From Candidatus Wolframiiraptor gerlachensis (lineage in GTDB: Archaea; Thermoproteota; Nitrososphaeria_A; Caldarchaeales; Wolframiiraptoraceae): a stretch of DNA of 46,995 nucleotides. Below the pieces are notes generated by a model. It did no database searches, was not told the DNA's origin, and saw only the letters and a list, made by a program, of their open reading frames with translations. This document shows, one piece after another, positions 574 through 15,336 of this stretch; position 1 is the stretch's first letter, and each line of letters opens with the position of its first letter. The stretch covers positions 1 through 46,995 of the forward strand of contig JAJPCT020000003.1 of NCBI GenBank assembly GCA_021323375.2, in the 5' to 3' direction. The position numbers were made by a program, and so were the translations under genes.

Positions 574-1062
574 TCACGGCAGCAGCACTGAGGCCGGGTA
601 GATCTTGCCGGACGCGCTGTGGAGCGTGACCTCCACGGTTATCCCTGGGCTCGGCGCCCCCACTGTCAGCTGGAACTGGGCGACCTCGCCGGGATTGCAG
701 GTCACCTGCAGGTTTCCTATGGCTTCGGATGCAATCGTGCACGTCCCGCCCACCACGTCGAGCGCATTGACAGCGAAACCCGCGGGCGGGTTAGCTATCG
801 GCTGGCCGTTGATGTAGATGTTGTCGATTGTCGCCGACGCGGTTCCGGTGTTCTTGGCCGTTATGAAGATGTTGTACTGGTTCGGCGCGCCAGCTACGGG
901 AACTGCGTAGATATTCGTTACCTCGAATTTTTCGTACTTCGTGAATATTCCAACCAGCCCTGTCGCCCAGAATGCTACGGCGATGGCGATGACGATGGCG
1001 ATGGCGACAAGGATTACCGTTGCGACAACAGGGCTTATACCAGACCTATTCCTCAACATCAA
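574..1062 (-). CDS. Archaeal type IV pilin (class III signal peptide)
   Basis: RNRSG|ISPVVATVILVAIAIVIAIAVAFW prepilin motif followed by a beta-rich domain (KNTGT..ID.IYING). Confidence 0.93.
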   Translation of the reverse strand: MMLRNRSGISPVVATVILVAIAIVIAIAVAFWATGLVGIFTKYEKFEVTNIYAVPVAGAPNQYNIFITAKNTGTASATIDNIYINGQPIANPPAGFAVNALDVVGGTCTIASEAIGNLQVTCNPGEVAQFQLTVGAPSPGITVEVTLHSASGKIYPASVLLP

Positions 1063-1137
1063 CAGATATAAAGGTAATACCTTGATAAAAGAGTTTCTCC
1101 CCCATCATCAGAATGTCTAAAAAGTCTGGTAATCTCC

Positions 1138-2904
1138 TTAGCCGTATTGTGTTGGCAGGGTTATGAGCTGGACGCTCATGGTCCCGGCTATCCAGACGGC
1201 CAGAAGCGTTATCACGGACATTATTATCGCGTGCTTGAACCCTCCCGCCAGGGTCCCGTCGGCGATCTTCCCGGCCACGAGGCCGCTTATAACAGCCACA
1301 AGCACAACAGGTGGAAGGAACATGTGGACGAACTCTGATATCGAGATATAGATCCTCGCGATCTGGAGCAGCCCCTTCATGAAGACGACGAGGATAACCA
1401 CGACCGCGACGAGCATGACGGCCGTCATGTATGGTATGAGCATGAGGGGCCTCAGAGTAGCCCTCTTCTGCCTCTCCATCTCCTCCAAATCCTCCATGAA
1501 TGTGGTCAGCGTATCAAGGGTCTCAGGAGCGCCTCCGCCAACATCAATCGAGTCTATCAGGATAAACATGCCGGCCCTCGCAAGCCATCCATGAACCCTC
1601 CTCTCAAAATCCCTGTAAATAGCTCTGAGGGAGTTCCCCCAGCCAATCTGCCTACTCATGAGCTTGAGATGCTTCGTGAACCCGCCATAATCCCTATCCG
1701 AGAGAGTCCTGATACACTTCTCGGGGCTCATCCCAGTCTTCCGGGTCTCGGTCAAGTCCCTTAGAAAACGCGTCAAGCCCTGGAGAACGGACATGTTCTC
1801 CTTGCCATACTTCTCCCAGGCAACAGCGCCCGGCAGAAACAGGACTATAAAGCCGAGGCAGAGGCCGATAGTCGCCTCATAGCCCATATCAAGGCCCATA
1901 AGCCTCCTAAGCTGGACAATCAGATCTGACGTCAGGCTAAAGGGCGGAATATACCTGAGCGGCTCAGCATAGAACGGCACCACGAAGAGGACCATGAATA
2001 TCATCCCTGCCGGCATCCCGGCGAGAAAAGCCTTGAAAGGCCTCTTATCCGTGAACGGATACTTCGGCTGAGAGATGTCGGCGAGATAGATGAACATCCC
2101 AGCCATAAGGGGCATGATGAGATAGGCGAAGATCACGAACTGCTCGGCCGGAAACGTGAAATACTCGCTCGGAAGAGCCCTAGAGACTATATAGATGATA
2201 TAGAGGACAAGGGAGATCATCATGACGGTCGCCGCATAGGACTCCATAAGCATGCCAAGCCTCTCGCCAACAATCCTCATGTTCGCAGTCCTACTCTGAA
2301 AGATCACCTCAGTCTTCCTGATCAGGAAGTGGACCACATCACCACCGCTCCTCAGCGTCGAGACATAGCCCATCAGCAGATCCCTATACTCCTTAGACGG
2401 AATGTTCCTCGCCATGTCCTCTATAGCGGAGACCGGGTCCTCGCCGGTCGCCTCAACCCTCAGCTCCGCAACCCTCGCAATCTTGGCCAAATTCGGCATA
2501 AGCTCGCTCTTAGAAAGCCTCTTCAAGCTCGTGTAGGGCGGGACGCCGCCAGTCGCCATGACAGCGAGATAAGTCGCCGCATAAGGAACCTCGCTCTCAA
2601 AAACCGAGGCAATCGAGGAGGCCTGAACATAGGGATAGAAGACCCCCATCAACAAGACCAGCAGCGGCACAGCCATAACAATAAGCGAGAACAGGCTCCG
2701 AGTAACCAGATACAGGATAAAGGCCAGGGGCACGCAAGCCAGGGCAGCTATGACCGTGATCCCGGCGACAGTCGCCGCATAAGCCTCCGGATGAACCCTC
2801 ATCACGGCGGCCTCAAGCTTCGAGGAGATCCCCGGGAAGATCCTGAGAAGAAGGGATCCCAGACCTCTAAAACTAGCATAGAAGAAGCCATACATGTTAT
2901 CCAT
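1138..2904 (-). CDS. Type II secretion system F-domain membrane platform protein (TadC/FlaJ/AapF-like, two F domains)
   Basis: 588 aa, multi-TM, with two T2SSF repeats (YLAVMATGGVPP...LRSGGD; FLRDLTE..KTGMS...IDVGG) and GLVAGKI motif. Confidence 0.93.
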   Translation of the reverse strand: MDNMYGFFYASFRGLGSLLLRIFPGISSKLEAAVMRVHPEAYAATVAGITVIAALACVPLAFILYLVTRSLFSLIVMAVPLLVLLMGVFYPYVQASSIASVFESEVPYAATYLAVMATGGVPPYTSLKRLSKSELMPNLAKIARVAELRVEATGEDPVSAIEDMARNIPSKEYRDLLMGYVSTLRSGGDVVHFLIRKTEVIFQSRTANMRIVGERLGMLMESYAATVMMISLVLYIIYIVSRALPSEYFTFPAEQFVIFAYLIMPLMAGMFIYLADISQPKYPFTDKRPFKAFLAGMPAGMIFMVLFVVPFYAEPLRYIPPFSLTSDLIVQLRRLMGLDMGYEATIGLCLGFIVLFLPGAVAWEKYGKENMSVLQGLTRFLRDLTETRKTGMSPEKCIRTLSDRDYGGFTKHLKLMSRQIGWGNSLRAIYRDFERRVHGWLARAGMFILIDSIDVGGGAPETLDTLTTFMEDLEEMERQKRATLRPLMLIPYMTAVMLVAVVVILVVFMKGLLQIARIYISISEFVHMFLPPVVLVAVISGLVAGKIADGTLAGGFKHAIIMSVITLLAVWIAGTMSVQLITLPTQYG

Positions 2905-2936
2905 GAAGCCCAGGTCTCAAGCCACCCCCAGCAAGC

Positions 2937-3305
2937 CTATTCCGAGAGATAGGCCTCGAGAAGGAGCTCCACGTAGCCGAGATTCGGGTTTTGCCTCGTC
3001 AAGCAGACCATATAGTATCCCTTATACTGCCTGATTAGGATGAATCTCCCATTATCAAGCTGTATATTGAACCTCTTATAACCCTTGGCGCCCATGAGCT
3101 CTATCACGGCGGATATGGCGCCGCAGACAGCCGCAGCAGCCGCGGCAATATACTCCGAGTTGAAGTTCGGGTTATCGCTCTCATGAGCTATTGGCATACC
3201 ATCCTCGGAAACAGCCTCAACAGCGTCAATCCAGCCCCGGCTGTTCATCTTGATCGCGCGGACAAGCCCGGCCAGCAGCCTCTCCTCAGCGCTCGTGATC
3301 ATCAC
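2937..3305 (-). CDS. Roadblock/LC7 (MglB-like) protein, paralog A1
   Basis: VSEDGMPIA...YIAAAAA...NPNLGYV Roadblock pattern, 122 aa. Confidence 0.85.
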   Translation of the reverse strand: MMITSAEERLLAGLVRAIKMNSRGWIDAVEAVSEDGMPIAHESDNPNFNSEYIAAAAAAVCGAISAVIELMGAKGYKRFNIQLDNGRFILIRQYKGYYMVCLTRQNPNLGYVELLLEAYLSE

Positions 3306-3976
3306 TTAAACCTCCCCAAGCTCTCCGACAAATATGCCCTTAGGAGATCCCTAACCTCCTCAACGCCGAACTCGGATCCACCGCCAACCGTGAGCGCATA
3401 CACCTCGGACTCGCCAATCCTCCCAACGAGGAAGAGCATTACCCTCTCTTCGCCCTCTGAGACCATGTAGCTGAACCCGGGGTTAAGCCTCCGGACAAGG
3501 GAGATGAAGTCGGCGACGGAGGCTGCAACCCTATCATCCTCACCAACATTATACGAGTCAATCGGTATCCCAGATTGATTGAGAAGTATCACAGACTTCA
3601 AGCCCAACATGGATGCAACCTCCTCTAGCGAGGCAAACCCAAACTCCTCACCCGCCTCAGCGGGCTTAATCTCGAGGCTCTCAAGCGGCCTCGGCGGAGG
3701 CGGCGCGGGCTTAACCTCGGCCTTGGCAGCAGGCTTAGTAGCTACACTAGGCCTAGGCGCAGCGGGCTTGGAAACAGCCGGCCTAGAAGATGTTGGTGGA
3801 GGGGCTGGAGGAGCCGCTACACTAGGAGCTACAGGCCGCGGAGGGCCTACCATCTTACGAGCCGCAGACCTGACAAGAAGAAGTGAGGCAACGGAGAGCG
3901 CGATCGAGACAACGGCTAAAATTACTATTAGGAGGATGAGGAATGATAACTCGCTAATGAAGGGTAAGCCATCCAT
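3302..3976 (-). CDS. Membrane-anchored protein with Pro/Ala-rich linker and C-terminal Roadblock-like domain
   Basis: N-terminal TM helix, PAPPP linker, then VILLNQSGIPIDSY...RVAASVADF. Confidence 0.7.
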   Translation of the reverse strand: MDGLPFISELSFLILLIVILAVVSIALSVASLLLVRSAARKMVGPPRPVAPSVAAPPAPPPTSSRPAVSKPAAPRPSVATKPAAKAEVKPAPPPPRPLESLEIKPAEAGEEFGFASLEEVASMLGLKSVILLNQSGIPIDSYNVGEDDRVAASVADFISLVRRLNPGFSYMVSEGEERVMLFLVGRIGESEVYALTVGGGSEFGVEEVRDLLRAYLSESLGRFK

Positions 3977-4085
3977 CTCCAGCTAGTAAATAAACGGTAT
4001 TAAGCCGCTTATAATCCTTCTCTCACCGGCCTCCCGCCGGATCGAAACATATATCTCCTCTGCACGAGGATATAGGTGGCGAGGA

Positions 4086-7000
4086 ATGGGCTTGGCGAAG
4101 AAGGGGAAGTCCGAGGAGCCGCCGAACCCCTGGAAGGGCATAGAGGTGAAGCCCATCCCAGAGGACTATGAGGTGCTGGATCGGTATGCTATCAGGGAGG
4201 GGCTGGCTGAGGTTGTGATCGCAACACCCCCTGGCGAGACCCCCGAGCCAACATACTTCGCAGTAGAGGTTCAGCTCACGCCACAGGAGGCCCTAGCGCT
4301 GGAAAAGCTGAAGGATATACTCTCGAAGGAGCTGGAGCCGCCTAAGCCCGGCGAGGAGGAGGATGCTAAGAGAATCCTCCTAGAGACGGCCGACAAGCTC
4401 CTGAAAAAATATGAGCGGGCCCTTGGGAGATTTGACGAGGAGTCGAGGCAGAAGCTATTCTACTATCTCGAGAGGGATATGACAGGATTCGGCCCCCTCA
4501 ACATAATAATGGAGGATTATAGGATCGAGGACGTCTCATGCGATGGCGTAAACATCCCGATATATGTCTGGCACAGGGACTATGAGAGCATCCCAACAAA
4601 CATAATGTTCACGGATCGAGATGCTCTCGACGACTACATAATCCAGCTAGCCCACAAATCCGAGAAACACATATCATCAGCATTCCCGATACTCGACGCG
4701 ATGATCTATGGCAAGCATAGGCTCGCCGCGACATTCAGGGAGGAGATCTCGCCACGCGGAAGCACATTCACTATAAGAAAATTCAGGGAGAAGCCTTTCA
4801 GCATAACAGAGCTGCTACAGTCTGGACTCCTCAGCCCGGAGATGGCCGCATATTTCTGGCTATTGATAGAGCATAAGGCGAACATACTCGTGGCTGGCGC
4901 GACTGGGAGCGGAAAGACTACGATCCTAAACGCGCTGATGTGCTTCGTAAAGCCTAGAATGAAGATCGTAACATGCGAGGAGACAGCCGAGCTAAACATA
5001 CCAACAGAAAACTGGGTAAGATTCGTGACACGAGAAAGCTATGGGCTCGGAGCACAGAAAATAGGGGAAATCACCTTATATGATCTGGTCAAGACAAGCC
5101 TCAGATACAGGCCAGACTACCTCATAGTCGGAGAGGTAAGAGGAGAGGAGGCATTCGTCCTATTCCAGGCCATAGCTAGCGTTTCTTGGGACACGCCGAT
5201 ATTGATAAGAGATGTTCAAGGTGGGGGGCCGAGACTCGTCAGAATTGGGGAATTCGTGGACCAATTTTATGAACCATCAGAGGAAAGGGTGCCGAAATTT
5301 ATTAATGGATTCGAGGTGATGACTCTTAGCAAGAGTGGGGAGGTTTGTTGGAAACCAATCCGCTATGTCCTAAGACACAGGACAAACAAGATCTACAAGA
5401 TAAGGTATGTTGGTGGAGAGGTTAGGGCCACAGGGTCACATAGCGTCTTCGTGCTGGATGAGGACTCGCTAACGATAAGAATGAAAAGAGTCAGCGAGCT
5501 AAAGCGTGGGGACATTCTCGTAAGCTTCCTAAAGAGACGCGAGGAGGATTCTTCGAACCCGAGGTTGGATCTAATAGAAATCTTAGGAGATCGACGTAAG
5601 GATTTCGTTGACGGCCTCCCACCGAACATTAAAGCTCTAGTAGGCAGAAACCCCGTGAGCCTGGCAACATACCTAGAGATTGAGAGATCCCGCGATACTA
5701 GGGAGAATCTGAGGATAAGGCGATGGCATACCGGGAACTGGGTTCCAGCAGTCCTAGAGGTTGACGAGGACTTGGCATTTGTTATGGGCGTTTACCTGGC
5801 TGATGGTTGCGTAAAGGAGCATAAGGGTAAGAGCCTTTGCTTCAGCTTAGGACCAAGGAGAAGAGATGTCGAGGAGAAGGTAATCAAGATATTTTGGGAG
5901 AAATTCAAGCTTAAGCCGATAATAGACGATAAGGGTAGCTATCATATAGTAACCTTTAACTCGACTATACTCGCGGAGCTCTTCAAGAAGCTTATGGGAG
6001 GAAAGTTGGAAGAGAAGCATGTGCCGAGCTTTCTATGGCGCGCGCCTAAGAGGATAATTAAGGCATTCCTGAGCGGGTATGCGGCGGGTTCGCGTAGAAA
6101 GGTGAGGAATAGAAAGGATGGGTGCTATGTCATTAAGAAAGCTATGCTCGCGTGCGAGATCTCTTGGCTCGCGCGGATGACAGGCTTGAACTCTTATATC
6201 ATTAGGGAGGGTCACGGGCATTATGGCTCATATAATGTCTTAGGGCTTAAGGATGAGGTAAAGCCGCCGAGCGCGAATCTAGTGCCCCTTAAGCCGATCA
6301 TCAGCCTATACAAGAGTTTAAATCCATCCAACATGCCTTGGAATTTCACACACGTATTTAATGGCAAAAGGAGGTTCATTAGCAGAGAGAAAGCCCGGGT
6401 AGTCTTAAACTGGATTCTGCAAAAAAGAAGACGCGAGCCAGAGGATAAGGATCATGAAATCTTGGCAAGGCTGAATCTGCTACTCCAGAGCGATATAGCT
6501 TTGGCTCCGGTGCTTGAAGTGATTGAGGAAAGCTATGATGGATACGTTTATGACATTTCTGTTCCTGAGACCGAGGCATTTTATGGCGGATCAACACCGG
6601 TCCTCCTTCACAACACGGGTCACGGCGGCCTCTCAACTATTCATGCTGAGAATATAGAGTCTGTGATGAAGAGACTTGTAAGTCCTCCGATGAATATTCC
6701 GCCTAGCCATATTCCGCTCTTGGATGCTGTGGCGCTTGTTGATAGGGTTCGCCTGCCTAGGCCGATTGATGGGAGGACCTATGCTAGGAGGATTAGGTAT
6801 GTGTGGGAGGTTGTTGATTATGGGAAGTACGTGACGATCGCTGAGTGGAATCCAGCGACTGATCAGTTCGTGACGAATTTCACAGACAGCATCGTTTTGG
6901 ATAAGATAGCCGTTAAAACCGCAAAGACAAAAGAGGAGATATTAGCTGAGATTGATAGGAGGGCAAGAATACTCAAAAACATGTTGGAAAGGGGTATGCT

Positions 7001-7364
7001 CGAGATAAGCGATGTAGCTAAGGAGGTGTATGCATACTATTCTAATCCTGAGCAGGTGCTGAGGAAATATGGGATAGCCGTGGAGGAGATCCAGGTCCCG
7101 GTGGGATCTTCTAGGGGGGGTGCCGGTAGCTTTGGGGCCGAGTCCTATAGGGCGGCGAGGGCTTTGGCGGAGGAGGATGGCGAGGCTGCGATCGCCGAGA
7201 AAGTGCTCAGCCTCCTCAGGCAGCATGGTGGAGTATATCCGCTGTGGAGGATCTTTGTCGAGACCCCGGCCCCGAAGATCATGGTCTTCAAGGCTCTGAA
7301 GAGGCTGAGGGAGAGCGGGAAAATAGAGATGTCGAGATCAATGGTGGTTCTGAGGGGAGGCTAA
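4086..7364 (+). CDS. Type II/IV secretion (VirB11/AapE/FlaI-like) pilus assembly ATPase, intein-containing
   Basis: Walker A GATGSGKTT, LRYRPDYLIVGEVRGEEA and TGHGGLSTIHA His box, interrupted by an intein; C-terminal wHTH-like extension. Confidence 0.95.
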   Translation: MGLAKKGKSEEPPNPWKGIEVKPIPEDYEVLDRYAIREGLAEVVIATPPGETPEPTYFAVEVQLTPQEALALEKLKDILSKELEPPKPGEEEDAKRILLETADKLLKKYERALGRFDEESRQKLFYYLERDMTGFGPLNIIMEDYRIEDVSCDGVNIPIYVWHRDYESIPTNIMFTDRDALDDYIIQLAHKSEKHISSAFPILDAMIYGKHRLAATFREEISPRGSTFTIRKFREKPFSITELLQSGLLSPEMAAYFWLLIEHKANILVAGATGSGKTTILNALMCFVKPRMKIVTCEETAELNIPTENWVRFVTRESYGLGAQKIGEITLYDLVKTSLRYRPDYLIVGEVRGEEAFVLFQAIASVSWDTPILIRDVQGGGPRLVRIGEFVDQFYEPSEERVPKFINGFEVMTLSKSGEVCWKPIRYVLRHRTNKIYKIRYVGGEVRATGSHSVFVLDEDSLTIRMKRVSELKRGDILVSFLKRREEDSSNPRLDLIEILGDRRKDFVDGLPPNIKALVGRNPVSLATYLEIERSRDTRENLRIRRWHTGNWVPAVLEVDEDLAFVMGVYLADGCVKEHKGKSLCFSLGPRRRDVEEKVIKIFWEKFKLKPIIDDKGSYHIVTFNSTILAELFKKLMGGKLEEKHVPSFLWRAPKRIIKAFLSGYAAGSRRKVRNRKDGCYVIKKAMLACEISWLARMTGLNSYIIREGHGHYGSYNVLGLKDEVKPPSANLVPLKPIISLYKSLNPSNMPWNFTHVFNGKRRFISREKARVVLNWILQKRRREPEDKDHEILARLNLLLQSDIALAPVLEVIEESYDGYVYDISVPETEAFYGGSTPVLLHNTGHGGLSTIHAENIESVMKRLVSPPMNIPPSHIPLLDAVALVDRVRLPRPIDGRTYARRIRYVWEVVDYGKYVTIAEWNPATDQFVTNFTDSIVLDKIAVKTAKTKEEILAEIDRRARILKNMLERGMLEISDVAKEVYAYYSNPEQVLRKYGIAVEEIQVPVGSSRGGAGSFGAESYRAARALAEEDGEAAIAEKVLSLLRQHGGVYPLWRIFVETPAPKIMVFKALKRLRESGKIEMSRSMVVLRGG
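5178..6614 (+). mobile_element. Intein (479 aa) with LAGLIDADG homing endonuclease domain
   Basis: FQAIA|SVSWDTPI...ATGSHS...GVYLADG...YVYDISV...LLHN|TGH; removing it restores FQAIATGHGG. Confidence 0.95.
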
Positions 7365-7387
7365 GGCTGAGAGCCCGCAGCCCTCCC

Positions 7388-7894
7388 CTACTCGATCATT
7401 TCCAGCAAGGTCTTCAACAGATTGACCGCGCTCTCCCTGTTGAGGGCGATAGTCGGTATTATCGGGATCTCCGGGGGAGCCTTAAGGGAGTATCGCATTA
7501 CCTTCTCGGGGATCATGTTCCCCCCGTCAGCCTTATTCGCGGCGATAACATGGGGCACGCCGGGAAAATTCCTCCTAAAGTAGTCGTATACGAATGCGGC
7601 GTCCAGAAGGCTTCTTGGATCTTGAGAATCGACCATGAGTATGTATCCATCCATCCCCTTGGCCAGAACCCGCCACATGAAGAAGAACCTCCGCTGTCCA
7701 GGAGTCCCAAAGATCCTAACACGCTGGCCATCAATCTCTAGGATCCCGAAGTCTAGAGCCACGGTCGTGGTCTGCTTGACTGTCTCTACGAGAAGCCTCC
7801 TATCAGACTCCAGTATCTTCCCGCATAGCGTCTTTATGAGGGTGGTCTTCCCCGCGTTGAAGGGCCCTGTAACAACGATCTTGTAGGTCTTCAT
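7388..7894 (-). CDS. Small GTPase, MglA/CvnD (ATP_bind_1-like) type
   Basis: G1 GPFNAGKTT, TTVALDFG, GTPGQRRF, G4 NKAD. Confidence 0.92.
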   Translation of the reverse strand: MKTYKIVVTGPFNAGKTTLIKTLCGKILESDRRLLVETVKQTTTVALDFGILEIDGQRVRIFGTPGQRRFFFMWRVLAKGMDGYILMVDSQDPRSLLDAAFVYDYFRRNFPGVPHVIAANKADGGNMIPEKVMRYSLKAPPEIPIIPTIALNRESAVNLLKTLLEMIE

Positions 7895-8247
7895 CTCGAG
7901 AGATATGCCTCGAATACTAGGTTTATGAAGCCGAGGTTTGGGTTGGGCTTAGTCACAGCGACGACATAATAGTCCCTATACCTTCTGATGAGGAGATGGC
8001 GCTTCTCCCCGAGCTTCACGTCCACGGCATCAAATCCCCTCGAGTTGATGAGCTCGAGAACGGCGTCCGTCGCCCCAGCTATCGATGATGTGGCGGCCGC
8101 GACATATTCCGGGTCGATATCAATATTAGCGCTATATGCTAGTGGCGCGCCATCTTGTGAAACTATGATTATCGCGTCCACCCATCCCCTACAACTAATC
8201 ATGATGTCCTCGATCAGGGAATTGAGCTCCGAGCGGATAGACTCCAC
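7891..8247 (-). CDS. Roadblock/LC7 (MglB-like) protein, paralog A2
   Basis: VSQDGAPLA...YVAAA...NPNLGFI; clear paralog of 2937-3305; its stop overlaps the GTPase start. Confidence 0.87.
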   Translation of the reverse strand: MESIRSELNSLIEDIMISCRGWVDAIIIVSQDGAPLAYSANIDIDPEYVAAATSSIAGATDAVLELINSRGFDAVDVKLGEKRHLLIRRYRDYYVVAVTKPNPNLGFINLVFEAYLSR

Positions 8248-8253
8248 GTCACC

Positions 8254-8784
8254 TCACCTCCTCCTGCCAATAATGCTCTCAACATATTCTTGTAGTATTT
8301 CTCGGGCATATTTCGTATCCGTCACCAGCTTAGGGCCGCCTATCACGAGGCTGTAGAGGGTCACATCGCCCACCCTCTTCAACTCCATTATAAAGCTTAT
8401 AATGCTGTTCCCGAATATAAGGACTCTCGTTGGAAATCCCAGGCTTTTTAGAACGTTTACTAGCTCCGCAAAGGAGGCGGCTGCCCTAGCCCCATGCTCC
8501 TCGGCTATGTTGTAGGTTTCAACGACGAGTCCCTGATCATCGAAGATCATAAGAGCCTCGGCTCTAAGGAGTACTGCTACCTCAGCCAAAGTATTAACGC
8601 GTCTGGCAGGCAACTCTCTAACCTCCAGTACCTCTACGAGGTTTTCTTGACTGGGCTCCATCAGTAGCGCTTCAGATCCTAGCCCGGCCATTTTTTTAGA
8701 ACCTTTAATGGTTAGGATTAGAGCCGCGATCGCTACTGCTAATGATATAATAGCAAGGGCTATCACAAGCAGGTAAGAATCCAT
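8254..8784 (-). CDS. Membrane-anchored Roadblock-like protein
   Basis: Likely start MDSYLLV at 8784; N-terminal TM; MIFDDQGLVVETY...RAAASFAE is paralogous to 3302-3976. Confidence 0.68.
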   Translation of the reverse strand: MDSYLLVIALAIISLAVAIAALILTIKGSKKMAGLGSEALLMEPSQENLVEVLEVRELPARRVNTLAEVAVLLRAEALMIFDDQGLVVETYNIAEEHGARAAASFAELVNVLKSLGFPTRVLIFGNSIISFIMELKRVGDVTLYSLVIGGPKLVTDTKYAREILQEYVESIIGRRR

Positions 8785-8886
8785 CTCCTGACCAAACTTA
8801 GTGTGACAGCTCGCCCAGATATATTCACTTCTTGGGGATCTCATAAGAAGAAAGCTTAATAGCCTTGTCCATTTCTTAACTGTAGA

Positions 8887-9666
8887 ATGACTTATAGGGT
8901 CCAGTTCTTCATAGCTGATGATGAACTTTCGAAGAAAATGTTAAAAGTGATAGATCAAGTGACAAAACTTCTGACAGAGAGGTTCGGCCCTAGAATGACA
9001 TCGTCTTCGAAGGATTTCATAGCCTACGTCCTCACAAATAATACCGTGTCACTTAGCCTCGAGCAGGGGGCGAGCGATACCATTCAGCTGGATATATACT
9101 TCGTGTTGGAGACATATCGGGAGGAGCTTAAGGCAAGGTTTAAAGTGGCGGACTTTCCAGCGGCCATACTAGATGACCGTACTTATATTGCAGAAAAGGC
9201 GCTCGAAATAGCCTCCAAGCTATATAGCCTGCTAAAGACATCTCGTGGAATCAATGATGACGAGCTATTAGCTGGGCTTAAGAAGCTCAGCATCCAAGAA
9301 CCTGTAGCGGAGAGCAAGATAGTTGCTGAAAGATCTTTAAGATCTGCTCTCTCGATCCTGCAAAAAGGAGTGGAGCCGGCAATTAGAGTCGCTAGTAAGG
9401 TTGCCTCGGGTATAATTAGAACAGCTCAGCTATCCACGTCCTCCCCTTTAGGGGGAACGGAAGTAGAAGTTGCTGTAAGTGCTCGACCCAAGTCGGAGCC
9501 AGCTCCTAAAGGCTCGCCAACAGATGGGATCCTCTTCGAGCGTAACGTGATAAGGGCAGGCATATCAGAGTGCTTAGCCAAGCTTGAGAGGCTTCGGGAG
9601 GAGGGCAAAATTGACGAAAATGCTTACAGGAAGATGAAAGCTGTTTACGATGCTTTCTTAAGTTAA
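8887..9666 (+). CDS. Hypothetical protein: thioredoxin-like (no CxxC) N-domain and SHOCT-like C-terminus
   Basis: N-domain shared with 11764-12609; C-terminus LAKLERLREEGKIDENAYRKMKA. Confidence 0.6.
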   Translation: MTYRVQFFIADDELSKKMLKVIDQVTKLLTERFGPRMTSSSKDFIAYVLTNNTVSLSLEQGASDTIQLDIYFVLETYREELKARFKVADFPAAILDDRTYIAEKALEIASKLYSLLKTSRGINDDELLAGLKKLSIQEPVAESKIVAERSLRSALSILQKGVEPAIRVASKVASGIIRTAQLSTSSPLGGTEVEVAVSARPKSEPAPKGSPTDGILFERNVIRAGISECLAKLERLREEGKIDENAYRKMKAVYDAFLS

Positions 9667-9733
9667 TCCATATTCTTGGGAAACATATATATCCAGCTTT
9701 ATCTATTAATACCTCTCTGGCAGGAGTAGGTGG

Positions 9734-10117
9734 GTGATTGAAGTAATGGCATCTAGGTTCGAGTTAATGCGTGAGGTACTGACCCAGCTCTCTCATGGAA
9801 ATCCAGACATATTGGGGTCGGCTATAGTCAGCGAGGATGGGCTTGTCATAGCAAGTGCCCTACCCGAGGGATACGATGATCAGAGGGTCTCAGCGGTTAC
9901 TGCGGCCCTCAGTAGCATAGCTAATCGCGCGGCTCGGCAGATAGCCCTCGGAGAGGTACAGAGAATGATGATATTCGCCGAGAAGGGCGGCGCCATCCTA
10001 TGCTCCGGCAAAAAGGCCTCGCTCGTGGTCCTTACGAAGCCCAACGCCAAGATAGGCCTCGTGCTAATGGATGTGATGGAGGCGGTTGACAAGCTCAAGG
10101 ATGTGTTGGGCTTCTAG
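9734..10117 (+). CDS. Roadblock/LC7 (MglB-like) protein
   Basis: Canonical SAIVSEDGLVIASALP...RVSAVTAAL...AKIGLVL. Confidence 0.92.
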   Translation: MIEVMASRFELMREVLTQLSHGNPDILGSAIVSEDGLVIASALPEGYDDQRVSAVTAALSSIANRAARQIALGEVQRMMIFAEKGGAILCSGKKASLVVLTKPNAKIGLVLMDVMEAVDKLKDVLGF

Positions 10118-11577
10118 CCTTTCCCGGCAGCTATCACGGCCTCGGCCCTACTCTCTCTTACAAGCTTTCCTCTCAGGCATCCTGGATCAGGGGCCAAGTA
10201 ATCCCCATAGTAGGCGTATGCCCTAGCCCTACATCCTCCGCAAACATATCTGTACTCGCAGCTTCCACATGGCTCCTTTAGGAGATCCTTGTCCTTGAGA
10301 TCGTTTATCACCTTGCTGTTCTCCCATATATCCCTCAGCCTCTCACTTCTCAGGCTTCCAACTGGGATTGGTAGGAAGACGCATGGCGTGACCGTGCCAT
10401 CGGGCTGTATTGCCATGTATATTCTGCCCGCACCACATCCACCTACAAACTCCGCAACTGCCCTCAACGTGGAGCTGTGGGGCATCGTGAAATGTGTTGG
10501 AAGGACATCCTCACCACTACTCATCTGCCAAGATACGCGGGCCAGCTGCGGGGCCGTTGAGACTACCTGTATTCTGGACCTAGTCGCCTCACGATAGATA
10601 TTCCTAAGCACATCCTCCCTCTCCTCCGGGGTTAAGTCCAACTCAACCGCTTCTTTTCCCCTACCTGTTGGGATGAAGTTAAAGAACACGACCCTATTCA
10701 CCCCAAGCTCCTCGCCCAGCCTAACCATATCCTCGATCCCATTCTTGTTGAGCTTGGTGACCGTGGCGGCGATCCCAACCGAGACCCTGCCCCCACCATA
10801 CTTGACTACATTCCTGATCCCTTTAACAGCCAGCTCCCAGGCGCCCTTAATCCCCCTAAACATATCATGCTCCTCGGGCTTCGTGGAGTCGAGGCTGACT
10901 TCAACATATCTCAACCCGGCCTCTATCGCGCGCCTAGTGAACTCCTCATCCGCAAACCTTATTCCATTGGTCGCGACAGCCATGTAGATTCCCCTTCTCG
11001 CACCCTCCTCAACCACGCGGAGGAAATCTGGATGAATCGTAGGCTCACCGCCGCTGAGGGCCACGAGCGGTATCCCCATCTCATCCACCTGCCTAATCAC
11101 CTCAAGCCTCTCCTCAGAAGTAAGCTCGCCCGGCCCGGGAATAGGCCCCGCATTCTGATAACAATGAATACACTTGAGATTACATGCATTGGTGAAGTTC
11201 CATACTACGAGGAATGGCGCCGCCAGCTTCTGCGGCACAGTCACGCCATAGCTCAGCAGGCTTCTAAGAACAAGCTCAATCCCCCTCCTAATCGCGGGAT
11301 CACTTATTCCCTGCTCGAACTCCTCACGCCTTATATGCATAAACTTCAACGCCGCCCCGAAAAGCAGCTTACAGAGATAATAGTCCAGCATGCAGCTGAA
11401 GCTAATATTCCCCTCATCCTTATCCCTCCGCGCAAGCATGCTCAAAACATGCTCAAGCCTCGTTCTCGCGCCGCTGGGATCGGGCTCCAGAAACCTCCTA
11501 AGGATAGCTCTCGAGATCCTACTCCCAAAAATCGTCCTAGCAACCTTGATACTATCAGCTTCGAGCGACAAGCCCAC
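10114..11577 (-). CDS. Radical SAM/SPASM domain protein
   Basis: CNLKCIHC, SGGEP, GCGAG...PC...CGSC...CGGCRARA...DPGC. Confidence 0.92.
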   Translation of the reverse strand: MGLSLEADSIKVARTIFGSRISRAILRRFLEPDPSGARTRLEHVLSMLARRDKDEGNISFSCMLDYYLCKLLFGAALKFMHIRREEFEQGISDPAIRRGIELVLRSLLSYGVTVPQKLAAPFLVVWNFTNACNLKCIHCYQNAGPIPGPGELTSEERLEVIRQVDEMGIPLVALSGGEPTIHPDFLRVVEEGARRGIYMAVATNGIRFADEEFTRRAIEAGLRYVEVSLDSTKPEEHDMFRGIKGAWELAVKGIRNVVKYGGGRVSVGIAATVTKLNKNGIEDMVRLGEELGVNRVVFFNFIPTGRGKEAVELDLTPEEREDVLRNIYREATRSRIQVVSTAPQLARVSWQMSSGEDVLPTHFTMPHSSTLRAVAEFVGGCGAGRIYMAIQPDGTVTPCVFLPIPVGSLRSERLRDIWENSKVINDLKDKDLLKEPCGSCEYRYVCGGCRARAYAYYGDYLAPDPGCLRGKLVRESRAEAVIAAGKG

Positions 11578-11763
11578 TTGCCGGGAGTTAGGAGATTATT
11601 ACTAGGGAATAAATTTTCACCTACCCATTAGAGGATGATTCCTGAATAGGTGAAAGCCCGATCATCGAGGGCTATGAGCTTCGCTATCCGAGGTGAACCA
11701 ATTGAGTAGAATTCATAATACTTAGGGCTGAAAAAGCCTAAATAGGATAAACAATCCTATAGC

Positions 11764-12609
11764 TTGGGCCAGTACGACATGCCCTATATGTTATCATTTT
11801 TCATAGCTGAGGATGAGCTCTCGGATAAGATAGCCTCAATATTAAATGATCTTATCGGAAAGGTGAAGGGCTCCGCCAAGATAAGGTACTCAGAGTCCCT
11901 TGGGATGTCGATGACAAGTGTTAGGATAGGCCTGAAATCGGCCCTCGGAAGAGAGGATACTCTAGAGCTCAGGATACATTCGATGTTGGGGAAATATGTT
12001 GATTCCTTAAAGCTTAGGTATGGGTTGCCGGGGATCCCGGCGGTAAAGCTGGGCGAAGCTGTTCGCTGGGGACCGGAAGCGGTTGAGATAACCTCGAAAA
12101 TATATTCGCTATTGGCGGGGGGGGGAGGCGCATCAACGGCTGAGCAATTATTCTACAGCATCGCGAACTACATGCAAGGGCCGCGCGAGATTAGAGAAAT
12201 GCCGGAGGAGCAGGCTGCCCTAGGAGCCGATATAACGCTACAGATGAATAAAATCCAAGAAATCGTGGAATCTCTCAGAAGGGATAACCCGGATATAGCT
12301 GGCTGTGTTATCTTGAATGAGAAAGGGGGGGTTATAGCGCACAGCATCCCGCCCGAGATTGATGAAGAGAGGGTTTCTATGGTGTTTGCCACCCTTCGAA
12401 GCGCGGCCGAGAAGACGGCCCAGCATATGGCGCTTGAGAAGATGAGGCAGTTTGTGATCTTCGCGGAGGGGGGAGGAGCCCTCCTCCAGAGGCATGGCGA
12501 CCTCTTCCTGCTCGTATTCATGAAGCCCGACGCGAAGCTTGGAGCGGTGCTCATGGAGCTTGGATACGCTATTGAGAGGCTCGAGCAGGTCACCAAGGCA
12601 AAGTCCTAG
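11764..12609 (+). CDS. Fusion of thioredoxin-like domain and C-terminal Roadblock/LC7 domain
   Basis: C-terminal half NPDIAGCVILNEKGGVIAHSIP...AKLGAVLM is similar to 9734-10117; N-terminal half is similar to 8887-9666. Confidence 0.8.
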   Translation: MGQYDMPYMLSFFIAEDELSDKIASILNDLIGKVKGSAKIRYSESLGMSMTSVRIGLKSALGREDTLELRIHSMLGKYVDSLKLRYGLPGIPAVKLGEAVRWGPEAVEITSKIYSLLAGGGGASTAEQLFYSIANYMQGPREIREMPEEQAALGADITLQMNKIQEIVESLRRDNPDIAGCVILNEKGGVIAHSIPPEIDEERVSMVFATLRSAAEKTAQHMALEKMRQFVIFAEGGGALLQRHGDLFLLVFMKPDAKLGAVLMELGYAIERLEQVTKAKS

Positions 12610-12615
12610 CACGAT

Positions 12616-13623
12616 ATGATGGTGAAGGCGTCGCTTTACAAGAAAACCGGGGAAGATGCCGTATGCCTAGTATGTGAGAGGACCTGCAGGATAAGCCCCA
12701 ACCTCTACGGCGTGTGCGGAAATTATCGAAACGTTGGTGGAGAGCTTTTTCACGCCGGATACGGGATCCTAAGCGCCATCGAGAGCAGGCCGATTGAGAT
12801 CAAGCCCTTCTTCCATTACTGGCCAAATAGCACGGCCCTAACATTCTCCGGCTATGGATGCAACTTCTACTGCCCATGGTGCCAGAACAGCCACATAAGC
12901 TTCTCAAAGCCGCCGATAGGGGCAAAGCCGACCCCTCCCGAAACCCTCGTAGAAATGGCCCTGAGAAATCGGGATGAGGGGCTCTGCGCGAGCTTCAACG
13001 AGCCCGCAACACTCTTCGACTATCTCCTAGACGTTTTCGAGCTCGGCTCAAAGAGGGGGCTCTACGGCACCCTGGTGACAAATGGATACTTCACTGAACG
13101 CGCCATAGAGATGCTCATAGGGGCAGGCGCAGACGGATTCAGCATAGACATCAAGGGATGCCCATCCGCCAGAGGCGCCCTAACAACAATAGACCACCTC
13201 AAAGTCTTCAGAAACGCCCGGAAAATCCTAGACCTAGGAGGACATGTGGAGATGGTATACCTTGTAGTAACAGGATACAACGACTCAAGAGAATGCGCTG
13301 AATGGATCCTCGAAAAACACCTAGAATACTTGGGCCCGGAAACGCCAATACACATAAACAGATACTACCCGGCAAACTACTGGAAAGAGCCCCCAACACC
13401 CCTCAGCAAACTCCTAGAATTCAGAGAAATAGCCCTGAAAATGGGAATAGAATACGTCTACATCGGAAACGTGGGTTACCCCGATCTCGAGGACACAAAA
13501 TGCCCAAAATGCGGAAAGACCCTGATAAGACGGCGCAGTTATAGGGTTACATATTATAAACTTGATGGAGAAAGTTGCCCAAGATGTGGGTATGGAATAA
13601 AACTTCGGGGAGAGATTTCGTAA
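12616..13623 (+). CDS. amrS: AmmeMemoRadiSam-type radical SAM enzyme (PFL-activating-like)
   Basis: CLVCERTC, PIEIKPFFHYWP, CNFYCPWCQN, NEP, C-terminal CPKCG/CPRCG. Confidence 0.85.
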   Translation: MMVKASLYKKTGEDAVCLVCERTCRISPNLYGVCGNYRNVGGELFHAGYGILSAIESRPIEIKPFFHYWPNSTALTFSGYGCNFYCPWCQNSHISFSKPPIGAKPTPPETLVEMALRNRDEGLCASFNEPATLFDYLLDVFELGSKRGLYGTLVTNGYFTERAIEMLIGAGADGFSIDIKGCPSARGALTTIDHLKVFRNARKILDLGGHVEMVYLVVTGYNDSRECAEWILEKHLEYLGPETPIHINRYYPANYWKEPPTPLSKLLEFREIALKMGIEYVYIGNVGYPDLEDTKCPKCGKTLIRRRSYRVTYYKLDGESCPRCGYGIKLRGEIS

Positions 13624-13629
13624 GTGGGC

Positions 13630-14864
13630 GAAATTTATCACAGCGAATATAATAGGTCTTATTCTTATTCTTATACGTGTTTCTACTATTTCAGCGGTCA
13701 TTAATTTCTCTCATTATGTAACTTTTATTATCTTGCTCCGGAACTTATTTATATAAGTATTCCTGATTCATCACCTCTTCCGTTGCAATAGCTCCTTCTG
13801 GAACAGGAGATTGTTATGCTTTTAGTACCTGTGTTTCTCTCAGCCCAAATAGAGGCAAAGTACGACAGTTTTTCTCTCTCCTGGATCGATTAAAAATTAT
13901 AATATACTCGCATTCACTATCAAATTGTGGTAGATTTTGAGGGGTTATTAAAACATTAATGGAGGTGATGGTGACTGTTTCATTGGCTCCTTTTGGAAGC
14001 TGGACGTCTACAAAAACAAAAAAGTAACTGTTCTCGCTTACCTTCTTAGGAGCAACTATCTTCACATCAAGAGGTACTGAAATTATTGATCCGCGGTTTA
14101 ATACGAATATTACTGCTGTCTTGTCGGGCACCTCTACTATCTGGGGGTTTCCTTCAGGTATCTGGACGAGTTTACCGTTCTCATATAATGCGACGCTATA
14201 GTTTCCCGGGAATATTCCAAATGCTACGGTTACGTTCTCGTTACTGGCTGTTGCCTTATGAGTAAACTTTTCGGGTGATACCTTTCCATTCCCGAGGGGC
14301 GTAACATAGACCTCATACAGCTTTCCTCTCTTCATGTTAATTATGCTGACGGTCAATGTGTATGGGAATACTATGTCAACCAGCCCACCTTCCTTTAAGT
14401 AAACCTTATTTGAGGAGAATATCCTACCCTCTCCGTTACGGCGAGAAATTGCACGATGCCTGTAAATCCATTGACACAGGCTTGGACATTGAGAGTGCCA
14501 TTTCCACCCGGGGTAAACTTAGAAGTTCTCCATTCAAACATGGTTCCGCTGCAGGTATGGATTTCTGCCTGACCACATCTATAGCCCAGATCCTAACAAT
14601 CCTAACACTTACAGGCCCATCATTCGATAGCATCAGCGTTAGCTCTTTCGTTAATACATCTTGCGATACTCCAACTGTTAGTGACTCAGACATCCTATCG
14701 GTATCAAAGATCCTCCGTGAATTTGACTCATTTAGAAAAAGTGCGTAGGAATTCTGCATTAGTATAACTAGCGGCACTATTATCATGAAGAATATCGCTA
14801 GAACTATTGCTCCTCCAGCAACCGCCGAGATACCTCTCCTCCGACCAACATTTCTCCTATACAT
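13630..14864 (-). pseudogene. Frameshifted large pilin-like/adhesin gene (class III signal peptide)
   Basis: RRG|ISAVAGG prepilin start. One-base corrections near 14511 and 14428 give SLPPGGNG...VTERGRIFSS and join ORF 14436-14864 to ORF 13814-14356; further indels near 13890 and 13850. AT-rich; 3' end approximate. Confidence 0.72.
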
Positions 14865-15336
14865 TTTGCCTCACCACGATCATCCATTGAGCATTCTCCA
14901 ACGGGTTATTTGGATTGTATATTGTTAAGGCAATAGCGCGTATCTCGATGACATAGGGCTTCTCGCCGTCAAGCTGACACTTTGATCCCATTTCTAGAGG
15001 ATAAGCGGTATTCATGGACGCGCTAACTCTAGCTATCTCTTGATAACTTATTGGCGGTGGAGAAGCAGATCGCGGGTAAATCGTGCATGAAAGTATTACA
15101 AGATCCACTTTCCCCGGATTTGACACCCAGACAATCCCCCTCTCCCAATCGATAAACTCCACCACAAGCATGCTTCTTTGCTGGGCTATCGCCTTATTCG
15201 TCTCCGCCACAATACCCACTGCTGAAACTCCAGCCCACCCACTAATAACCCCCCAAAGGAACAATCCTAAAAATACGGTCACCGCTGTCATGATAGCCGC
15301 TGAAACAACATAGCTAACGCCCTCTCCCTTTTTCAT
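14857..15336 (-). CDS. Minor pilin-like protein (class III signal peptide)
   Basis: KKGEG|VSYVVSAAIMTAVTVFLGLFLW; VWVSNPG pilin motif. Confidence 0.8.
   Translation of the reverse strand: MKKGEGVSYVVSAAIMTAVTVFLGLFLWGVISGWAGVSAVGIVAETNKAIAQQRSMLVVEFIDWERGIVWVSNPGKVDLVILSCTIYPRSASPPPISYQEIARVSASMNTAYPLEMGSKCQLDGEKPYVIEIRAIALTIYNPNNPLENAQWMIVVRQNV

Follow-up and report, generated by a model that had tools for sequence, protein, structure and literature searches.

A small GTPase and Roadblock-type genes within a type IV pilus locus of a Caldarchaeales archaeon

Introduction

The bacterial MglA/MglB system controls type IV pili. In Myxococcus, MglA in its GTP-bound state activates the pili via SgmX (PMC7668184), and MglB and RomY form a Roadblock complex that acts as a GTPase-activating protein (GAP; PMC9481161). 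Here we describe a locus of the Caldarchaeales archaeon Candidatus Wolframiiraptor gerlachensis in which genes for a type IV pilus are interleaved with genes for a small GTPase and for several Roadblock-type proteins. The locus was predicted at positions 574-12609 of a 46,995-nt stretch of DNA (hereafter the window, meaning the whole stretch analyzed). We refer to its GTPase and Roadblock-type genes, with an associated orphan domain, as the module.

The MglA proteins have been sorted into groups by sequence (PMC4316618). Groups 2-5, which include CvnD and the archaeal Group 4, have a GTPGQ motif and carry a Thr where group 1 has its intrinsic arginine finger; the MglB proteins coupled to group 2-5 MglA retain an Asp-Gly pair (PMC4316618). 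For the archaeal Group 4 mglA genes, no conserved neighbours were reported, and in the 2014 genome set these genes came almost only from methanogens, plus one korarchaeote (PMC4316618).

In archaea, Roadblock/LC7 proteins of arCOG02603 were recorded in ‘a variety of T4P loci’, T4P being type IV pili (Makarova, Koonin and Albers 2016, PMC4858521). Structures are available for Asgard Roadblock proteins and GTPases, and the small GTPase genes of MK-D1 do not, as a rule, share operons with Roadblock genes (PMC10933270); the words pili, pilus, TACK and transmembrane do not occur in the available portion of that article. The main text of the Wolframiiraptor genus description (PMC9246946) contains none of the terms pili, pilus, motility, GTPase or roadblock. 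In our full-text searches, no paper came up that describes a module of GTPase and Roadblock genes in a pilus locus of archaea, which is consistent with the statement of the original prediction, made from the sequence of the window alone, that it knew of no such archaeal system. The matter is of interest because archaeal type IV pili can retract and twitch without a PilT-type ATPase, as reported for the pili of S. acidocaldarius, which has no PilT homologue (PMC11178785). How one ATPase is controlled is a question on which this locus may bear.

Results

Gene content of the locus

We called genes from the listing of open reading frames (ORFs) together with Pfam and NCBIfam scans, with Pfam run on 17 proteins of the locus. 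Three genes identify the pilus. The first encodes a pilin of 162 aa (574-1062, minus strand) with a class III signal peptide (TIGR02537, 29.6 bits; cut-off 20). It gave a weak UpsA match in NCBIfam and no match in Pfam, and its orthologues adjoin the platform gene across the order. The polytopic platform protein (1138-2904, minus strand, 588 aa) is UpsF/BasF/ArlJ-like: two of its stretches matched T2SSF (PF00482, E 1e-23), and its NCBIfam scores for UpsF (98 bits), BasF (83 bits) and ArlJ (56 bits) were each under the respective cut-off. The third gene, on the plus strand, encodes a FlaI/BasE-like pilus assembly ATPase with a C-terminal extension (4086-7364, T2SSE E 2.3e-28). The ATPase is 1092 aa long, or ~613 aa when its intein is subtracted, and orthologues are present across the order; an intein-free one (L032:4480-6318) scored 229 bits against BasE and 358 bits against the FlaI model. 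Together, these three parts mark the locus as that of an archaeal type IV pilus. A reading of the locus as an archaellum was rejected on the FlaI score (358 bits, cut-off 550) and the ArlJ score (56 bits, cut-off 550). Pfam scans of the locus genes also returned no KaiC-like protein and none of the Arl accessory families ArlH, ArlX, ArlF and ArlG.

The module is spread among these genes. RoblA, a soluble Roadblock protein of 122 aa (2937-3305, minus strand; Robl_LC7 35.1 bits, cut-off 23), is encoded 32 nt upstream of the platform gene, and its gene shares a 4-nt overlap with that of TMRoblA (3302-3976, minus strand, 224 aa), a membrane-anchored Roadblock-like protein with an N-terminal transmembrane (TM) helix, a Pro-rich linker and a C-terminal Roadblock-like domain. 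The ATPase gene is divergent from TMRoblA. Convergent with the ATPase gene is a second cluster, comprising the small GTPase (7388-7894, minus strand, 168 aa; TIGR00231 small_GTP 46 bits, cut-off 42.5), soluble RoblB (7891-8247, minus strand, 118 aa; Robl_LC7 27.1 bits), whose gene overlaps that of the GTPase by 4 nt, and TMRoblB (8254-8844, minus strand, 196 aa as listed), recognized as membrane-anchored and Roadblock-like from a hydrophobic segment and from membership in the family of TMRobl alignment A2. Divergent from this cluster are the genes for Ndom259 (8887-9666, plus strand), an orphan protein of 259 aa without a Roadblock domain, and RoblC (9734-10117, plus strand, 127 aa; Robl_LC7 47.7 bits), a soluble Roadblock protein of a second type. 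Further along, a gene on the plus strand (11764-12609) encodes a 281-aa fusion of an Ndom domain to a RoblC-type Roadblock domain (Robl_LC7 at residues 166-251, 34.6 bits). The N-terminal half of this fusion and Ndom259 are paralogues.

We searched the whole 1.28-Mb assembly (89% complete) for further copies. Because all four of its Robl_LC7 matches and its single GTPase match fell inside the pilus locus, we concluded that the grouping of module and pilus genes is not due to chance. The scans bore out the prediction that pilin, platform and ATPase genes are interleaved with GTPase and Roadblock genes at 574-12609. This interval holds all of the parts that had been named, and additional pilin-like genes lie beyond its end, at 13814-15336. 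The prediction had mentioned neither these genes nor the intein, Ndom259 and the two radical SAM genes.

Linkage of the module to pilus genes across genomes

We searched 401 genomes sampled from the phylum for the GTPase (E <= 1e-10) and surveyed the neighbourhoods of 60 GTPase loci, up to 10 kb on each side, using profiles made from window proteins and first-round hits. Below, f1 is the Wolframiiraptor family itself, f3 is its sister family, other f numbers are further families, and g1-g5 are genera. The GTPase was present in 63 of the 401 genomes, including 15 of 24 in f1, all 15 in f3, 10 of 12 in f25 and all 12 in f28. It was found in none of the 17 f2 genomes and none of the three f4 genomes searched.

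Within f1, pilus genes lay beside the module in 15 of 15 loci, and in 14 of these they included the ATPase or platform gene; the fifteenth locus is an 8.8-kb contig with pilins only. Two more f1 loci, which we reached via the ATPase, were likewise linked. The order in g3 is [TMRobl>Robl>GTPase>platform>pilin] divergent from [ATPase>Ndom>RoblC>three minor pilins], and g4 and g5 are similar. The window’s genus differs: a second copy of its TMRobl-Robl pair lies upstream of the platform gene, and radical SAM genes are inserted. Gene spacing is tight. In L035, L055, L060 and L104, the stop of the GTPase gene abuts or overlaps the start of the platform gene (0-4 nt from the listed ORF ends). Such a junction occurs in g4 and in one g1 genome, and 15 nt separate the two genes at L103, a g5 locus. 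The Ndom gene directly follows the ATPase gene in g3, g4 and g5, and the RoblC gene comes after the Ndom gene in g1, g3, g4 and g5. No Roadblock genes were detected outside these modules in the genome of the window (G000), and the same was true of the Robl_LC7 matches in G303, G345 and G018. In G145, two Robl_LC7 matches pair up ~16 kb from the GTPase.

Linkage recurred outside f1 in three families: f38, f48 and one genus of f28. The f38 locus (L041), from a family unrelated to f1 and with another gene order, carries on one strand the platform gene, five genes for products with a hydrophobic or pilin-like N-terminus, the TMRobl, Robl and GTPase genes and the gene for a pilin of 567 aa, with the ATPase gene divergent. 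At the f28 locus (L085), ATPase, platform and pilin genes abut RoblC and a second GTPase with a canonical G3 motif, and a GTPGQ-type GTPase with a RoblA-type gene follows 2-3 kb on. At the f48 locus (L049), the GTPase gene stands beside a minor-pilin-like ORF, 1.8 kb from the ATPase gene. The f25 loci and most f28 loci were unlinked; two f25 loci (L044, L078) have a pilin-like ORF ~7.5 kb from the GTPase gene, which the automatic rule used on the tree scored as linked and which we did not count as linkage. We built a quick maximum-likelihood tree from 78 GTPases. On it, linkage has to change state 6 times, and well-supported branches force 5 of these changes; the two f25 rows are included in these numbers. 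A rough estimate, not a computed control, is that a random gene in a 1.5-Mb genome with 2-4 pilus loci would fall within 8 kb of a pilus gene ~5% of the time. Because of this expectation, the recurrence in three families besides f1 looks to be beyond chance, although the genomes are related and the comparison is not a formal test. The original prediction had named a gene-neighbourhood survey as its check; ours found the linkage kept throughout the f1 loci and present in three other families, and also found that it does not hold generally. That is, the link between module and pilus is restricted to certain lineages.

The f28 loci also showed an arrangement of their own. In two f28 genera, a second Ras-like GTPase with an Asp-bearing canonical G3 stands beside a RoblC-type gene. 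A methyltransferase-domain gene and a 262-aa gene of unknown function lie between it and the GTPGQ-type GTPase with its RoblA-type gene, giving a block of two GTPases and two Roadblock proteins (L085:5046-8938, L048:9150-13252, L086 and L084). The f48 locus L049 has the methyltransferase-domain and 262-aa genes as well, placed between the GTPGQ-type GTPase and the ATPase. In nine f3 loci (L036, L037, L039, L061-L064, L066, L067), a gene for a double zinc ribbon protein of 105-130 aa immediately precedes TMRobl in the same orientation. Double zinc ribbon proteins (arCOG06883) have been listed in type IV pilus loci of Thaumarchaea (PMC4858521).

The small GTPase

The motifs of the GTPase are GPFNAGKT (G1), TT (G2), GTPGQ (G3) and NKAD (G4), and the protein also matched ATP_bind_1, Arf and Ras in Pfam. 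An alignment of 22 archaeal GTPases (A1) gave GxxxxGKT, Thr-Thr, GTPGQ and NKxD at the same four places. The Gly, Lys, Asn and Asp residues of the G1 and G4 motifs were invariant in the 22 sequences, and P65 and G66 were invariant or nearly so. A G3 motif without Asp and a TT without an arginine finger are marks of MglA groups 2-5 and CvnD, so the label ‘MglA/CvnD-type’ given in the original prediction was apt as far as motifs go. Identity to the homologue of Candidatus Wolframiiraptor allenii was 96%; the closest bacterial relatives found were proteins of Actinomycetota (40-46% identity). A phylogeny of the GTPase had been proposed as a further check. The tree that was run, on the archaeal loci and 11 bacterial relatives, did not cleanly separate the two. 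Profile comparison with solved structures found no close one for this GTPase; MglA, Rab, Arf and Arl chains all matched at E ~1e-20 (MglA 3t12, E 5.3e-21). Coupling to a Roadblock gene, seen in the window as the overlap with RoblB, is widespread, in that most of the 60 loci have a Roadblock-type ORF next to the GTPase gene. In several families, distant relatives of the GTPase (35-43% identity, E 1e-20 to 7e-26) occur in frames of 395-443 aa (G053:C49, G306:C3, G318:C5, G085:C7, G357:C19, G399:C11), and their length suggests a fused, multi-domain form of this type of GTPase.

The Roadblock proteins

Six Roadblock-domain proteins had been predicted. Four were over the Pfam Robl_LC7 cut-off of 23 bits (27.1-47.7 bits), and the two membrane-anchored ones are probable members. 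An Asp-Gly pair is found in RoblA (VSEDG), RoblB (VSQDG) and RoblC (VSEDG) in the Roadblock alignment A3, and RoblC clusters separately from RoblA and RoblB. TMRoblA and TMRoblB each have a hydrophobic N-terminal segment of 19 residues (mean Kyte-Doolittle 3.2), at residues 12-30 and 25-43, respectively; the true start of TMRoblB may be the Met at residue 21. TMRoblA matched Robl_LC7 at E 0.028 (14.6 bits, under the cut-off) and TMRoblB had no Pfam match. Across the TMRobl family, 5 of 15 members matched Robl_LC7 at E <= 0.1. Comparing the TMRobl alignment A2 with A3 in hhalign gave a probability of 84.6% (E 6.8e-6, 99 columns), and the family matched dynein roadblock chains at E 0.027-0.077. 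Judging from these profile comparisons, TMRoblA and TMRoblB are probably Roadblock-domain proteins. There were 18 database relatives of TMRoblB, and all those with a source name were called ‘hypothetical’. Because basic residues directly follow the TM segment of TMRobl, the Roadblock domain is suggested to face the cytoplasm.

The Ndom domain and its fusion

We examined the fusion protein and Ndom259 through AlphaFold2 (AF2) models. The fusion model had a mean predicted local distance difference test (pLDDT) score of 89.6. Foldseek matched the C-terminal domain to Asgard Roadblock3 (9jue, E 3.4e-9) and to MglB (6hjm, E 4.9e-8; 1j3w, E 6.6e-8), and target TM-scores of the fusion model against Asgard Roadblock and MglB were 0.85-0.89. 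In the model, then, the C-terminal domain has the Roadblock fold. Ndom259 was modelled as an N-domain (residues 1-136), a disordered linker and a C-terminal helical hairpin, with pLDDT >90 for residues 1-130 and <50 for residues 143-217. The hairpin (residues 210-259) matches generic helical hairpins; a resemblance to a SHOCT motif found no support in Pfam.

The original prediction had called the N-terminal domain ‘Trx-like’. Its predicted topology is weakly in keeping with this: VIA aligned 70-84 residues of the domain with thioredoxin-fold chains, among them glutathione S-transferase N-domains, thioredoxins, KaiB and SasA-N (Z 5.3-6.3, root-mean-square deviation 2.2-3.3 A), which is below the Z 8 level of specificity. 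Foldseek found no match to the domain in the PDB at E <= 0.001, with the best thioredoxin-fold rows at E 0.02-0.06, and the ESM Atlas held no usable match. The domain lacks cysteine altogether and is therefore not a redox-active thioredoxin. The family is tiny: a word-indexed search returned 13 proteins, and 37 representatives were found among 1.84 billion proteins at E <= 0.001. By the usual logic of gene fusions, because one paralogue fuses the two domains, Ndom and RoblC would work together.

Neighbouring genes and the intein

Two radical SAM genes lie within or next to the locus, each with an NCBIfam match under the cut-off: an AhbD/NirJ-like radical SAM/SPASM gene (10114-11577, minus strand) and an AmmeMemoRadiSam-like gene (12616-13623, plus strand). 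The pair, or at least the SPASM gene, also adjoins the locus in g1, g4 and g5. AapX of Sulfolobus was the analogy on which we considered these genes as parts of the system, and in the end we left them out of it. The available portion of PMC4858521 mentions neither AapX nor radical SAM.

Three pilin-like or minor-pilin genes (180, 142 and 159 aa; 13814-15336, minus strand) are homologous to the minor pilins of 380-580 aa that follow the ATPase operon of relatives. The 142-aa and 180-aa ORFs (13814-14864, minus strand) align, in two different frames, with the N-terminal part and the middle of one minor pilin of L032 (412 aa), for which a frameshift, a gene split or a misassembly could account; a minor pilin of the relative L053 is split in a similar way. 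The third, of 159 aa, is far shorter than its homologues of 375-580 aa.

The intein of the ATPase is 479 aa long (residues 365-843; 5178-6614, plus strand; Intein_splicing E 1.1e-14), with boundaries ...FQAIA|S...HN|TGHGG... and LAGLIDADG-type motifs at residues 571 and 666. The extein pieces align with residues 3-362 and 361-607 of the intein-free orthologue. The insertion site, just ahead of TGHGG, is filled in G267, G207, G261 and G399 and empty in G273, G291 and G243. Paralogous ATPases of the sister family are open frames of 830-1100 aa whose alignment is broken at the same residue. The window’s genome also has a second, smaller T2SSE ATPase (G000:C23:40071-41060, L110:8801-10620; 445-aa frame, 35% identity) preceded by a pilin-like ORF, and no Roadblock or GTPase genes were detected within 10 kb of it.

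Discussion

The gene content and the linkage tip us slightly toward the view that the GTPase-Roadblock module is a regulatory switch acting on the pilus. We picture a type IV pilus of a Caldarchaeales archaeon with a nucleotide-switch module built into two operons that are predicted to be divergent. The module would be older than its link to the pilus, having the form of a free-standing operon in other Thermoproteota, and in the Wolframiiraptor family its genes are predicted to share transcripts with those for the platform and pilin and, in the other operon, with those for the ATPase and minor pilins. TMRobl and the soluble Roadblock protein would probably pair to form a membrane-tethered platform, which would bind the MglA-type GTPase and, in a GAP-like role, control GTP hydrolysis or nucleotide state. 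RoblC and Ndom may supply a second regulator or an adaptor. The GTP/GDP state, read at the membrane by the Roadblock platform, would then gate pilus assembly or activity, either as an on/off switch or by position in the cell. A more specific version is that, in a pilus lacking PilT, the platform sets the state of the GTPase, which through a thioredoxin/KaiB-like adaptor switches the single ATPase between extension and retraction, or else confines the ATPase to one site in the cell; this we regard as quite improbable in its particulars. The GTPase, Ndom and the intein-free ATPase of the relative G166, co-folded as alignments with the ATPase as partner, scored 0.15 against a mark of 0.32, in a run without controls and with a mark calibrated on single-chain pairs; this score weighs neither for nor against binding. 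The original idea of GTPase-based pilus control is partly supported by the genomic wiring, namely the GTPase motifs, the 15 linked f1 loci and the three other families, and is held back by a linkage that is not general.

Several observations weigh against a switch devoted to the pilus. An ATPase or platform gene was within ~10 kb in only 17 of the 60 fetched GTPase loci. No f3 locus (0 of 15) had pilus genes nearby, though 13 of 15 had the full TMRobl-Robl-GTPase triplet, there flanked by housekeeping genes for a glucose/sorbosone dehydrogenase, a tRNA-splicing endonuclease and a PhoU-like protein and by the gene for the double zinc ribbon protein, and on one contig of G098 ~620 kb separate the pilus ATPase gene from the GTPase gene. 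The f1 loci group as one clade on the GTPase tree and, because they are kin, may count as a single evolutionary event. Orthologues of the ATPase occur in all four families of the order, mostly at 53-60% identity over the full length and in a few cases at 43-50%, and we fetched 18 loci of such orthologues and two of paralogues for a reverse survey. Roadblock or GTPase genes were in none of the orthologous clusters of ATPase, platform, pilin and minor pilin genes outside f1 (f3, 0 of 7; f2, 0 of 3; f4, 0 of 2). Because f2 and f4 have the ATPase and no GTPase match, the pilus can do without the module; because the pilus loci of f2, f3 and f4 lack the module and the f3 triplet is elsewhere, the pilus predates the link and the triplet exists apart from the pilus. 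Among 21 ATPase orthologues, no alignment column tracked the presence or absence of the GTPase in either direction, and one column changed only in g2. The solitary f3 triplet with its housekeeping neighbours and the single f1 clade, together with the unlinked loci of f25 and most of f28, would fit a general membrane signalling or polarity module, made of TMRobl, Robl and GTPase and directed at some other target, which landed once between the ATPase and platform genes and was inherited from there. We consider this unlikely. A module with another target would hardly be expected to sit embedded in operons with its stop and start codons overlapping or abutting the platform gene, nor to keep the link through at least three gene orders and one duplication. 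The linked arrangements in f38, f48 and one f28 genus, the position of Ndom directly behind the ATPase gene in three genera and the lack of any other Roadblock or GTPase copy in the genome also argue against it.

Genus g2 of f1 raises a different point. At 3 of 3 loci it retains TMRobl-Robl, placed between the genes for the ATPase and the platform, and has no GTPase, Ndom or RoblC there, and the GTPase was in none of its seven genomes (93-99% complete). Within f1, therefore, the Roadblock pair can outlive the GTPase, and because g2 has the pair and no GTPase, the pair can act without a switch, which also counts against the regulatory reading. Of the two TMRobl-Robl pairs in the window, the one immediately ahead of the platform gene has no GTPase of its own. 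Monotopic ArlX is the scaffold of crenarchaeal archaella, and TMRobl with Robl could likewise be a fixed structural scaffold at the cytoplasmic face of the pilus machine, with the GTPase as an optional accessory; one of the 15 TMRobl members does match the ArlX Pfam family, weakly (E 0.0048). This too seems doubtful to us. Roadblock genes are absent from all 12 orthologous pilus loci of f2, f3 and f4, so a Roadblock scaffold is not required for this type of pilus, and the f3 triplet stays together far from the pilus locus. The Roadblock proteins also retain the Asp-Gly pair of the MglB proteins that are coupled to group 2-5 MglA (PMC4316618).

Regulation of the pilus by the module, the reading we favour, would have consequences that can be approached with a small set of proteins: the GTPase, the Roadblock proteins that probably regulate it, an anchor in the membrane and a possible adaptor, all encoded in pilus-motor operons and all testable. 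The locus offers a concrete candidate target for an archaeal GTPGQ-type GTPase, where Group 4 was described as lacking conserved neighbours (PMC4316618). Nature also provides comparison sets, in that the module is elsewhere in the genome in f3, the Roadblock pair lacks the GTPase in g2, and the module is missing in f2 and f4. If the extension/retraction version were true, a Ras-like GTPase and a membrane scaffold of several Roadblock proteins would already steer a surface machine in TACK archaea.

Of the systems already described, MglA/MglB(/MglC) of Myxococcus xanthus and Thermus thermophilus comes close in pairing a small GTPase whose G3 lacks Asp with a Roadblock protein encoded beside it. 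The Roadblock domain predicted for the fusion protein can be superposed on MglB, and MglA chains are among the best matches of the GTPase. The locus departs from that system in several ways. Group 1 MglA has TVPGQ and an intrinsic arginine finger (PMC4316618), whereas the GTPase here has GTPGQ and TT. Roadblock-type proteins number up to six here, of which two are TM-anchored, with their genes inside pilus operons; general Pfam scans of the locus found no RomR, RomX, SgmX or Frz-like gene; and the host is an archaeon without a PilT-type ATPase. The conservons of actinobacteria (CvnA-D) share the GTPGQ motif and the coupling to a Roadblock (CvnB-like) gene, and the Actinomycetota relatives of the GTPase are 40-46% identical. 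They differ in having a CvnA histidine kinase and CvnC, neither of which was seen among the 17 Pfam-scanned proteins, and the neighbours here are pilus genes. The passage of PMC4858521 on type IV pilus loci with arCOG02603 speaks of no small GTPase, no membrane-anchored form and no adaptor domain, and an FtsZ-family protein is the sole GTPase in that paper.

The eukaryotic Ragulator-Rag complex, and EGO, resemble the locus in that several membrane-tethered subunits of Roadblock fold hold GTPases, and Foldseek returned LAMTOR and Rag C-terminal domains at E ~1e-6. Unlike the Rag proteins, the GTPase here has just one domain (168 aa) and no Roadblock domain fused to it, and a TM helix serves as the tether in place of a lipidated subunit; only the architecture is alike. 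The locus adds a prokaryotic example of a membrane-anchored assembly of several Roadblock proteins with a GTPase, the architecture that Ragulator-Rag uses. Set beside these systems, what is new is suggested by the gene sequences to be a GTPase-Roadblock control of pili that is archaeal, encoded within pilus operons, tethered to the membrane and equipped with an orphan adaptor domain.

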